NCBI GenBank assembly: GCA_013265495.1
Contig: MU058226.1
Location: forward strand, 272,741-336,740
Reading direction: 5' to 3'
DNA: 64,000 nt
DNA from: Vicugna vicugna
Lineage: Eukaryota
Shown here: positions 18,601-26,568 of the stretch, piece by piece
How positions within the stretch are numbered: the first letter of the stretch is position 1
Layout of the letters: each line of letters opens with the position of its first letter
Program-made: the position numbers and the translations under genes
The notes under the pieces: model-generated
What the model was told of the DNA's origin: nothing
Seen by the model: only the letters and a program-made list of their open reading frames with translations
Databases searched by the model: none

Positions 18601-19679
18601 TTATAGTACAGTCTAATAGCAGCATATTCTGTACATGCTGGTAGGGAACCACCTTTGTGATGTTGACAAGGAACAAGAGAGTATGCTTTTCCCCCAAAAA
18701 TTCCTATTACGGTGAAACACACATAAAATTTACCATCTTAACCTTTTTAAGCATACAGCTTGAGAGTAATAAATACATCTATTATACCATTCAACTATCA
18801 CTACCATCCATCCCCATGAATTCCTTTCATCTTGTAAAACCCTCTACCATTTAAACAATAACTCCTCACTCCTCTTTGCCCAGCCCTTGACAACCACCAG
18901 AAGTATATTCTTTTAAAATATACCTGAACAACCTGTTTTCACTAATTTATCAAAAGATAAATTGGATGCCTGTGTTAATGGTATCATGAAACTCTCAAAT
19001 ATAATATTTGGAAATCCTTAACATTAGTGTCAATGTGTAATAAACCTTAGTTTTTTGTACACAGCTGTAAAGGGGTCCAGCTAGACGTCAGCTGTGAGGC
19101 TCACTGACTAGTGGTGAACTTTCACCTCCCTAACCTTTCTGTATCATATTGTTTTCACTGAGACCAATCTATTTTTTATTTGCTTTAAAATATTTTATTG
19201 GAATCCTTTTGATAAAGTACTTAAGACAAAATAAAGGCTGTCTGATATTTAAGTGCCCCAAAATTTCTAGGCAGTTTCCCCTCCTCCAGTAAGCTGACAG
19301 CTGCCTACAAGGGTTACTGCAGGAAAGATGTATGCTTCCTAGGGTCTGTCCAACACCAGATAGGGGACATACTTTGTGTCAGCAAAATCCTGAAATTTCA
19401 TAAAAGCAACACATTAAAAACATGCAAATAGCTGGTATTAAAGCATGAATCTGTCATATATACCGAGAACAAACTAGTGGTTATAAGAGGGAAAGGGGGG
19501 TTGGGTAAAAAGGACCAACTGTATGGTTAACAGGTAGTAAATAGACTTATGATCACTTTCCAATATATGTAAATATCAAATTGTTATGTTATATACCCAA
19601 AGCTAATGCAGTTATGTATCATTTTAAAGAAAAAAGTCTGAGTAGGCAGGGGAGTTGCCACACAGCGTGCAAAGGAGCA

Positions 19680-19758
19680 TGAGTGGATCAGGTGGTTTCA
19701 AAGATCCTCAGAGAAATGCTCAGAGACTCTAGTCCAACCAGGTCATCACTACCACTCA
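19680..19758 (-). ncRNA. C/D-box snoRNA, SNORD52-family paralogue (last intron of SNHG32)
   Basis: Minus strand TGAGTGG-TA-GTGATGA(C)-CCTGGTTGGACTAGAGTCT-CTGA(D')-GCATTTCTC-TGAGGA(C')-TCTTTGAAACCAC-CTGA(D)-T-CCACTCA; 7-bp terminal stem; same D' guide core as SNORD52. Confidence 0.7.
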
Positions 19759-20080
19759 GAATGGAAGAAAAACCAGCAAAGAGACTTACTATAGTACCCG
19801 GGTAGAAGGCATGTGTCTCTCCACTTCTTGTCGCAGCCTGCTGTTGAAGTGGCAGGAACTATTACCTAGGCATCCCAACAGCACTTCTCCAAGAGAATTC
19901 CAAACCTTAGGCCTTCAGTCACCAGGCTAGCCCTCAGTTTCTGTGAAGGGGCACTGACCCTGGCTGGGCTTCCAAAGCTCTCATGCTACAAAGATGAAAA
20001 CAGGACAACTCATGAAAAAAGACAGTTACAGCCCTTCCATTAGCCTTTCTCAGAAATCCAAGTATCCAGGTTCCCCAAAT

Positions 20081-20147
20081 GGGTCAGAAATGAATTTTGA
20101 CATCAGGACCAGCATCAGAGACTCTAGTCTGAGAAATCATCATTCCC
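20081..20147 (-). ncRNA. SNORD52: C/D-box snoRNA SNORD52 (U52)
   Basis: Minus strand GGGAATGATGATTTCTCAGACTAGAGTCTCTGATGCTGGTCCTGATGTCAAAATTCATTTCTGACCC, closely matching recalled human U52; intronic, ~95 nt upstream of a 3' splice site. Confidence 0.92.
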
Positions 20148-20600
20148 AACTTAGAGAGACCTGGATCAATGGAAGCCACCACTGGAAGGGATCTAAAACA
20201 TTCAAAAACAACGGTCCCAGTATAAGGACCTAACATAATTATGAGTTCAGGGCTGGGATGTTCAAGAGGAGAAATGGAAAACAAATTTATAACTGCAGAG
20301 GATAGCGCCAGCTCCACCAGAGGAACCCAGCACGAAGAGAAGTTTGTATTTGAAAAAGGGGTGGAGGAAGCAGGTTTAAGCGGGCTTAGACAAAAATCTG
20401 AAGTTAAAAACATGATCTGGGACAGCCGCTGAGAGCGCCCGCAACCCTAATACTCACCTTTACTCAAGGGTAACACACTGGTGGACGTCTTAAACCCCTA
20501 ATGGAGAAACGACACACGAATAAGTGATCACTAAGGGTTCCTGGACATCAACTTCTCCCCAAGACCAACTACTAGTAATCCCGGCCCGGGGGATAGGGGT

Positions 20601-20663
20601 GTTCAGCGCGCTGCGGTGATGGCGTCAGCGAGACACTCAGAATCACCTGGGTTCATCATCACC
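20601..20663 (-). ncRNA. SNORD48: C/D-box snoRNA SNORD48 (U48)
   Basis: Minus strand GGTGATGATGAACCCAGGTGATTCTGAGTGTCTCGCTGACGCCATCACCGCAGCGCGCTGAAC, closely matching recalled human U48. Confidence 0.92.
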
Positions 20664-20806
20664 TCCGTCCTCCCCCAGTGCGACCGCCATCTCGCACACT
20701 ACACTCACCCCCATGGAGCTGCAGATCCGGCTTCCAGAATCAGGGCCCTGGGAAACAAACAGTCAGCAGAGGCTAGGCTGACTCCAGAGGAGTCCCCCCT
20801 GCCCCA

Positions 20807-20886
20807 GGCTGGGTCAGTTCCAAGCACTGGCGTCACAGAGACATCAGAAACTCTAGTCTGTAATGGCAGTTCATCCTGCTTAGCCC
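20807..20886 (-). ncRNA. Second SNORD52-like C/D-box snoRNA with degenerate box C
   Basis: Minus strand AGGATGA(C, one mismatch)-ACTGCCATTACAGACTAGAGTTT-CTGA(D')-TGTCTCTGTGACGCCAGTGCTTGGAA-CTGA(D); in its own intron ~65 nt upstream of the acceptor at 20748. Confidence 0.55.
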
Positions 20887-22522
20887 GAGAGTGCGGTCCC
20901 TCAATCAGCAGGGCCCCGAGGTACCTGCACGCGGGCAGCTGTGCAAAGATGGCGCAGGGTGCCGCCTTCCTCTAATTCGGGGAAAGGTCCGCAGCACGCT
21001 TGGCACACACCATACAGCTCCCATACCACCTACCCACGACTTCACCGCACAAAGAGAACCAAAAACGCTCGGCCGGGGCTATTTATGGCGGCGTGGGGTC
21101 GGGGGCCTGACGGGCATGGCTGTCTTCTTAGATGCCTGTCTTGATCCGCAGCATTTTTTCCATCGCTCGTCCAAACAAGACTGAAACAAAGTGAAAGAGA
21201 GGCTACGAGTGAATGTTTCACACTCTTCTGGGCAAATATTCGGAGATGTTTTGCGAGTTTTGAAAAACAAAAAACAGGTGACTTGACTGGCCAGGCCGCA
21301 CAAAGTCCCCGGCGCTGTCAGGTGCGCGCGCAACTGAGCGCTCTTCTTGGCGGTTTCTCAGCGAGTCCAGTCCTGTGTTGAGTAATGACCCCCGGACTTC
21401 TCTCTCGTCTTCACTTGTCCCAGGTTGGGTCCAGGTCACTCCGAGGGACTGTCAGCCCGCTCCGTCTAGCCAGCGAAATCTGAAATCGCCTCCTCATTCC
21501 AACCTGCAGACTTGTCAGGCACATTAACTTTCATGCCTCCTTTTTTTTTTGTATTAACTTTATTAAGGTATAGTGAACAAGTATTTAAAATACACAATTT
21601 GGTACATTTAAAAAAATTGTAAGCTTTTAACGTTTACAGTTCAATAGTGTTAACATTTTCATATTGTTGTGCAACCGATCTCCAGAACTTTTTCATCTTG
21701 CAAAACTGAAATTTGTGCCTATAAACAGCTATTCCCCATTTCCCCATGTCCTTTTCATGAGTAGTGCAGTAGTGCATGGCCTGGGACTTGGCCAGAAATG
21801 GTGGAAGTGTTCAGTACACTGTGAATAGCACTGTGAAGTTTCAGGTGGTTGGAAGCAAAACATGTTGGGGTGGAGGGCAACAGGCCCTATTCTCCCTCGG
21901 CTGGTTTTCACTCTCTCAGCAATCTAGTCACTTGCTCTTAATCCATCAACTCATATATTACCCCAGACCCTACTTTCCTGACCCCTTCTGTAACTGTTCA
22001 TTTATGCAGATAGAGTTTGGCGATGTGTGTTGATATCTTTTTCATCTTTTGTGAGAAAGTCCCATCTACCAGGATGATTTGGGAGTTCCGAGTTATGCGA
22101 AATCAGTCTTCTGAGTCACATAATTTAGGCACAGAGAGCACAGAGCAAAATTGGACGAAGGCAATCATGGGTGCAGGAAATGTATCCTTTTATTTTTTTC
22201 TCCTGCAATTATTGTTCAGTCTGCCCTCCCTCCCTCCAAGGCTTCAGGCATCCATCAAAAAGTCTTTTCCAAGAACCCTACAGTATTCACCTGTTTGTTT
22301 GACACATTTCTCAGCTTCCAGGGGTTGAGCCCTTCCTATCATTGATCTTGCAAAGTGATTTTAAGTTTCAAGAAATGTATAGGCGATGACTTCTCATATT
22401 CTGATGCTGCTTTCTAACGAACTACTTCCCTAATGAGAATTCATGAAACTAATTGGGCCAGCCTCAGAAACTCTTTTTTGGCTCATTTTGCTGTTGCTGG
22501 CCACTTCTCTAACCTTTATCAT

Positions 22523-24642: not shown

Positions 24643-26568
<1,926 letters not shown>

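Follow-up and report, generated by a model that had tools for sequence, protein, structure and literature searches.

A Rfam scan of the window (the whole stretch of DNA that was analysed, 64,000 nt) returned 14 matches, comprising the C/D box small nucleolar RNAs (snoRNAs) SNORD48, SNORD52 and sno_ZL8 (hereafter ZL8) as well as 11 tRNA-like hits (Table 1). The tRNA-like hits are near-identical to one another, score 30–51 bits and occur on both strands between positions 301 and 28191; they probably represent the heads of a single tRNA-derived SINE family and not tRNA genes. The host gene of the snoRNAs is taken to be SNHG32/C6orf48 on the strength of SNORD48, SNORD52 and an HSP70-like reading frame lying upstream. 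The 3′ part of this frame, which is intronless and was recognised by eye (~24645–25500, minus strand), is positioned consistently with HSPA1B adjoining SNHG32, a neighbour named in a preprint on the human locus (bioRxiv 10.1101/2022.09.24.509301). By splice-site consensus, the acceptors that follow an upstream candidate element (described below), SNORD48 and SNORD52 lie 66, 105 and 98 nt past the respective D boxes, which suggests an arrangement of one C/D element per predicted host intron. ZL8 is flanked by sites likewise recognised by splice consensus, with a donor-like one at 19789 on its 5′ side and two acceptor-like ones, at 19638 and 19474, on its 3′ side. Because there is a further donor-like site at 19372, its placement in the last intron, as proposed in the initial annotation of this DNA, is not established. 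Of the 24 public runs listed, 20 cover some of this region and 4 are recorded as RNA; neither expression nor splicing can be read from these shares.

Table 1. Features of the putative SNHG32/C6orf48 locus, in window positions. WC, Watson-Crick; GU, G-U pair.
Feature	Position	Strand	Remarks
Inferred SNHG32/C6orf48 host gene	19175..21090	-	consensus scan only
Host TATA-like element; pyrimidine-rich start	near 21087; near 21058	-	
Host donors	20708, 20457, 19789	-	splice-site consensus
Host acceptors	20748, 20498, 19986	-	splice-site consensus
Host AATAAA signals	19199, 19180	-	
Candidate fourth C/D snoRNA with SNORD52 guide	20802..20890	-	predicted first intron; under every Rfam cut-off
Fourth element, box C variant AGGATGA	20877-20871	-	
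Fourth element, D' CTGA	20847-20844	-	
Fourth element, C'-like box	20836-20830	-	
Fourth element, D CTGA	20817-20814	-	
SNORD48 (RF00282)	20601..20663	-	88.5 bits
SNORD52 (RF00276)	20081..20147	-	91.2 bits; predicted intron preceding that of ZL8
ZL8 snoRNA (Rfam RF02725; human snoID_0697)	19679..19760	-	92.1 bits, model 1-83 of 83
ZL8 terminal stem, 5' arm TGAGTGG	19752..19758	-	7 bp
ZL8 box C, GTGATGA	19743..19749	-	consensus
ZL8 D' antisense element	19724..19738	-	+2 to +15 complementary to 28S (11 WC + 3 GU)
ZL8 guide core GGACTAGAGTCT	19735-19724	-	A at +5 = 19728
ZL8 +8 of D' element = T	19731	-	A in human and Rfam consensus
ZL8 box D', CTGA	19720..19723	-	
ZL8 box C', CTGAGGA	19705..19711	-	identical to human ZL8 annotation
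ZL8 segment before box D	19692..19704	-	no above-chance target; +5 (19696) unlike human
ZL8 box D, CTGA	19688..19691	-	
ZL8 terminal stem, 3' arm CCACTCA	19680..19686	-	

ZL8 has the architecture that defines the C/D class, namely terminal boxes C and D, internal boxes D′ and C′, and a kink-turn stem. All of these motifs, including the 7-bp stem, had been pointed out in the initial annotation and are present on the minus strand in the arrangement it described. The terminal stem consists of one U-U pair followed by 7 Watson-Crick pairs in the register of a kink-turn. The combination of an exact box C, a CTGA spaced as in snoRNAs and an in-register stem of at least 6 Watson-Crick pairs occurs once in the window, at ZL8, while the mean in 300 Markov controls is 0.007 per 64 kb; the arrangement is thus not a chance pattern. 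An antisense stretch of at least 10 nt to rRNA or snRNA, which is also expected of the class, is found before D′ and not before D. The folding energy of the whole molecule is ordinary (z 0.34), a measure of limited weight for C/D RNAs.

The element had been presented as an extra snoRNA, with the provision that Rfam scans might already call it and that existing annotation would remove its novelty. Rfam does call it, over the full length of the model and far above the gathering cut-off of 52 bits for RF02725, and this is the single match of the ZL8 model in the genome. The novelty is therefore gone. Human ZL8 was described in 2013 within C6orf48/SNHG32 (chr6:31805240-31805322) with small-RNA reads, and according to a figure legend and a probe table it was confirmed by Northern blot (Kishore 2013; PMC4053766). 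The same source gives phastCons values for its boxes of 0.938/0.832 across mammals and 0.665/0.337 across primates, and reports neither homologues outside mammals nor a predicted target. In Jorjani 2016 (PMC4914119), ZL8 appears as the eutherian-conserved snoID_0697, with RF00276 (SNORD52) as its best Rfam match (1.7e-5), and sno_ZL8, SNORD52 and SNORD48 are reported in the same order from the MHC region of the addax (PMC7053375).

The element in the window is virtually certain to be the orthologue of human ZL8. The two share the host gene, the four boxes and 57/62 positions (92%) from box C to box D in a by-eye comparison, and the distance from SNORD52 to ZL8 is 387 nt here, 387 nt in human and 407 nt in addax, so that the order and spacing of SNORD48, SNORD52 and ZL8 agree with what is reported from both species. 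These data support ZL8 as a genuine C/D snoRNA of SNHG32 that is conserved in placental mammals. The present copy departs from its human counterpart in a T for A at position +8 of the D′ element, which completes the pairing with 28S rRNA, an A for C at +5 before box D, and a cleaner 7-bp terminal stem. As a gene discovery ZL8 is unimportant, having its own Rfam family and having already been annotated in the MHC of another ungulate.

The target of the D′ element was sought in rRNA from the same genome (L024, L035). A large contig (L024/L025, G000:C7947:2759758-2763596) carries the 3′ part of the 28S rDNA as two partial tandem copies ~2.9 kb apart, and these served as 28S target. The ZL8 D′ element forms 14 unbroken base pairs with this 28S, and its +5 position lies opposite the same U as that of SNORD52, whose duplex comprises 13 bp (12 Watson-Crick). 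The predicted duplex energies are close (−21.3 kcal/mol for ZL8 and −21.0 kcal/mol for SNORD52), and ZL8 differs from SNORD52 in that the distal part of its guide pairs by G-U. Only 2/300 shuffled guides reached 14 bp in a scan of 3,372 nt of 18S, 3′ 28S, U2, U6 and U4atac, in which the 18S portion is of limited value because the 18S copies of this genome look error-laden or degenerate. The site number 3904 is borrowed from human papers and carried over via the common guide. ZL8 thus has the feature by which SNORD52 is recognised, D′ complementarity to the 28S U3904 site with an A at +5, and the SNORD52 guide core noticed in the initial annotation is borne out. The link to 28S-3904 was not new, since a supplementary table of Jorjani 2016 already gives this site as the best human target of the ZL8 element that, judged from the entry for SNORD52, corresponds to D′ (PMC4914119).

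Of the five differences from the human sequence, the one at position +8 of the D′ element is of consequence. In human ZL8 and, as a lower-case letter, in the Rfam consensus this base is A, which places an A-A mismatch within the duplex; the present ZL8 has T, as do SNORD52 and zebrafish SNORD52. Given the A in the consensus, a mismatch-free ZL8 guide may be atypical of the family.

In the present species, ZL8 may act at the SNORD52 site, Um3904, as a second guide of minor weight, a reading that we regard as marginally probable. ZL8 would be trimmed from the spliced intron, as is general for the class (production of the RNA is known from human), and would assemble with 15.5K, NOP56, NOP58 and fibrillarin via its C/D and C′/D′ motifs, aided by the terminal stem. 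Its D′ element would then pair with 28S rRNA and, by the +5 rule, direct 2′-O-methylation of the U that corresponds to human U3904. The four boxes, each canonical or close to it, speak in favour of such activity.

The human data point the other way. Deletion of SNORD52 in human H9 cells abolishes Um3904 entirely (bioRxiv 10.1101/2022.09.24.509301), so human ZL8 does not compensate, with the proviso that the deletion may also have affected ZL8 processing. Human ZL8 is also far scarcer than SNORD52, at 40.7 vs 4771 TPM/nt (~117-fold lower; PMC4053766), or 7,768 vs 6,665,262 in the expression column of a second study (~860-fold lower; PMC4914119). Human ZL8, mismatched at +8, seems not to act at Um3904, and redundant guiding by it is unlikely. 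The redundancy proposed in the initial annotation is thus contradicted in human by the SNORD52 knockout, and with the 14-bp duplex it is plausible in the present species.

A rival, which we regard as possible though doubtful, is that ZL8 is a low-abundance SNORD52 duplicate in slow decay, still assembled into a snoRNP but without a measurable share of Um3904 in any mammal, the guide seen here being a leftover. The optimal distance between box D and the 3′ splice site is ~70 nt; for ZL8 the candidate sites fall at distances of 50, 214 or ~297 nt and none at the optimum, which would agree with a copy in decay. The +8 mismatch in human ZL8 and in the Rfam consensus fits the same account, as do the scarcity of ZL8 in human (PMC4053766, PMC4914119), the uncompensated SNORD52 knockout (bioRxiv 10.1101/2022.09.24.509301) and the lower box conservation in primates (phastCons 0.67/0.34; PMC4053766). 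It sits less easily with the intactness of every box, the 92% identity to human, the reported retention of ZL8 in addax as well as in human and the present species, and the complete 28S duplex found here.

It is improbable that ZL8 has instead, via its D′ or D element, switched to a different RNA, be it U4atac snRNA or one outside the scanned set. Jorjani 2016 selected U4atac-25, and not 28S-3904, as the conserved target of ZL8 (ICI 1.75; PMC4914119). The D′ element forms at most 7 bp (5 Watson-Crick) in register with the single U4atac match of the present genome, against 14 bp with 28S, and U4atac was rejected as a target of ZL8 here. The segment before box D is near-identical to that of human ZL8 (12/13 by eye), which would be in keeping with a conserved function, although its +5 base, the one that would select the nucleotide, is not shared, with A here and C in the human copy. 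Against the same 3,372 nt of 18S, 3′ 28S, U2, U6 and U4atac, its best run was 7 bp, a length reached by 237/300 shuffles. In the human target scan of Jorjani 2016, this element had an ICI of 0.76 and nothing was selected (PMC4914119). In the "distinct D guide" of the initial annotation, the first A belongs to box C′, whose final base it is, and nothing about the segment points to a guide, its pairing being at chance level. The segment is most likely a spacer.

The 5′ guide segment of ZL8 is similar to that of SNORD52 (p 0.001), and outside the boxes and guide the two, compared directly, are no more alike than shuffled sequences (p 0.98); the strong divergence observed in the initial annotation is confirmed. 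On the SNORD52 model RF00276, a check which that annotation had proposed, ZL8 scores 28 bits (E 0.01 in 9 kb) under a cut-off of 45, and it is therefore SNORD52-like on paper and not a formal member of the family. It has in common with SNORD52 (U52) an 11-nt guide core before D′, the predicted target U and the host gene. In all likelihood ZL8 is an old SNORD52 paralogue. Its proposed origin as an intragenic duplicate, for which similarity outside guide and boxes is missing, is made likely by analogy with the multi-copy SNORD52 hosts of fish and frog. The zebrafish host FP101887 carries nine SNORD52-family copies in one gene (PMC7668251), and four SNORD52 copies are located beside SNORD48 on chromosome 8 of Xenopus tropicalis (PMC6984369 supplement). 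A host locus with more than one U3904-equivalent guide, as may be the case here, is thus a known and old arrangement. Human SNORD52, by comparison, has been called a singleton or single-member family (PMC8178906).

Many of the fish and frog copies have a second site: most zebrafish copies also guide LSU-C3916 (PMC7668251), and three of the Xenopus copies also guide 18S-U762, equivalent to human U799 (PMC6984369). The D element of ZL8 fits neither. As a remnant of the 18S-U762/U799 guide, with the site defined by the SNORD105 guide of the present genome, it is identical at 4/13 positions (p 0.49). At LSU-C3916 it pairs only at +1 and +8 to +13 (4 Watson-Crick in a row, 2 GU), and with +2 to +7 unpaired, guiding there is impossible and the trace of ancestry is too weak to claim.

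That ZL8 is not a SNORD52 duplicate and gained the same guide independently would agree with the lack of similarity outside guide and boxes (p 0.98) and with a 26-bit SNORD52 score produced by box C and guide alone in unrelated DNA, but is very improbable in view of the shared host gene, strand, D′ register and similar box spacing, of a 9-mer core that occurs three times within 1.2 kb against 0.5 expected across the whole window, and of the intragenic arrays of fish and frog (PMC7668251, PMC6984369). The 26-bit score comes from metagenomes, in which mammalian orthologues were sought in two scans; the first found 0 and the second 2 loci that are one stretch found twice (L081:2496-2573, L082:1307-1384). 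This stretch was rejected as an orthologue, having no SNORD48 or ZL8 match. It shows box C followed by the SNORD52 guide in unrelated-looking DNA, and may have arisen by chance or represent a distant guide that acts on the same rRNA position. In a second SNORD52 match of the present genome (L003:1501-1568, minus strand; G000:C10400:404457-404524; 68.2 bits), box C and D′ are changed, and the copy has a short A-rich tract and is bracketed by a 9-nt repeat; judged by eye, it looks like a retroposed pseudogene.

Upstream of SNORD48, a candidate fourth C/D element carries the SNORD52 guide (Table 1). Its D′ guide forms 12 bp (11 Watson-Crick) to the same 28S U, a length reached by 6/300 shuffles, and its flanking stem, in register, has 1 pair, 2 mismatches and 9 pairs (3 GU). 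A 17-mer of guide and D′, fitted to both copies, is matched exactly at 2 places in the 2.03 Gb, SNORD52 and the fourth element, 730 nt apart. As an estimated ~1 such match per genome is expected by chance, the signal is the proximity of the two. With one mismatch allowed, there are 74 matches against 91 for a control pattern, which is chance level, and only the 2 exact matches were used. The element scores 20.2 bits on the SNORD52 model. The change in its box C variant, AGGATGA, falls on the position that is normally U in the kink-turn, so the fourth element may be a weak or decaying copy. It is not among the three C6orf48 entries located in the Jorjani 2016 data (PMC4914119) or in the Rfam table of the addax paper (PMC7053375), and no mention of it was found in the literature searched, which is weak evidence. 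SNORD52 is reported to be duplicated in mouse (bioRxiv 10.1101/2022.09.24.509301), and that duplicate could be the fourth element or ZL8. The D′-C′ stretch of the fourth element (20828-20847) resembles 20620-20640 of SNORD48 on the minus strand (~18/21 by eye). A shared loop is not established (shuffle p 0.06), and the resemblance is a hint that SNORD48 might share ancestry with the SNORD52 array.

More tentatively, and with less probability than we give to ZL8 as a minor second guide, SNHG32 in the present species may keep three working Um3904 guides (SNORD52, ZL8 and the copy at 20814-20877) as the remnant of the fish and frog array, humans being reduced to one effective guide, with ZL8 crippled at +8 and no fourth copy catalogued. 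The remaining interest of the locus lies in the difference at +8 between human and non-human ZL8 and in the unannotated upstream copy, which, if real, would add to the snoRNAs that Rfam thresholds miss. If intact guides persist in non-human mammals, the function of the orphan-like ZL8 would be explained: it would be a SNORD52 paralogue whose match was lost in humans. Um3904 is reported to have an influence on neural fate in human stem cells. Should two to three intact guides persist in the SNHG32 of non-human mammals, the modification, dynamic and knockout-sensitive in human stem cells, would perhaps be buffered in other mammals, and knockouts of SNORD52 only would not be comparable between species.
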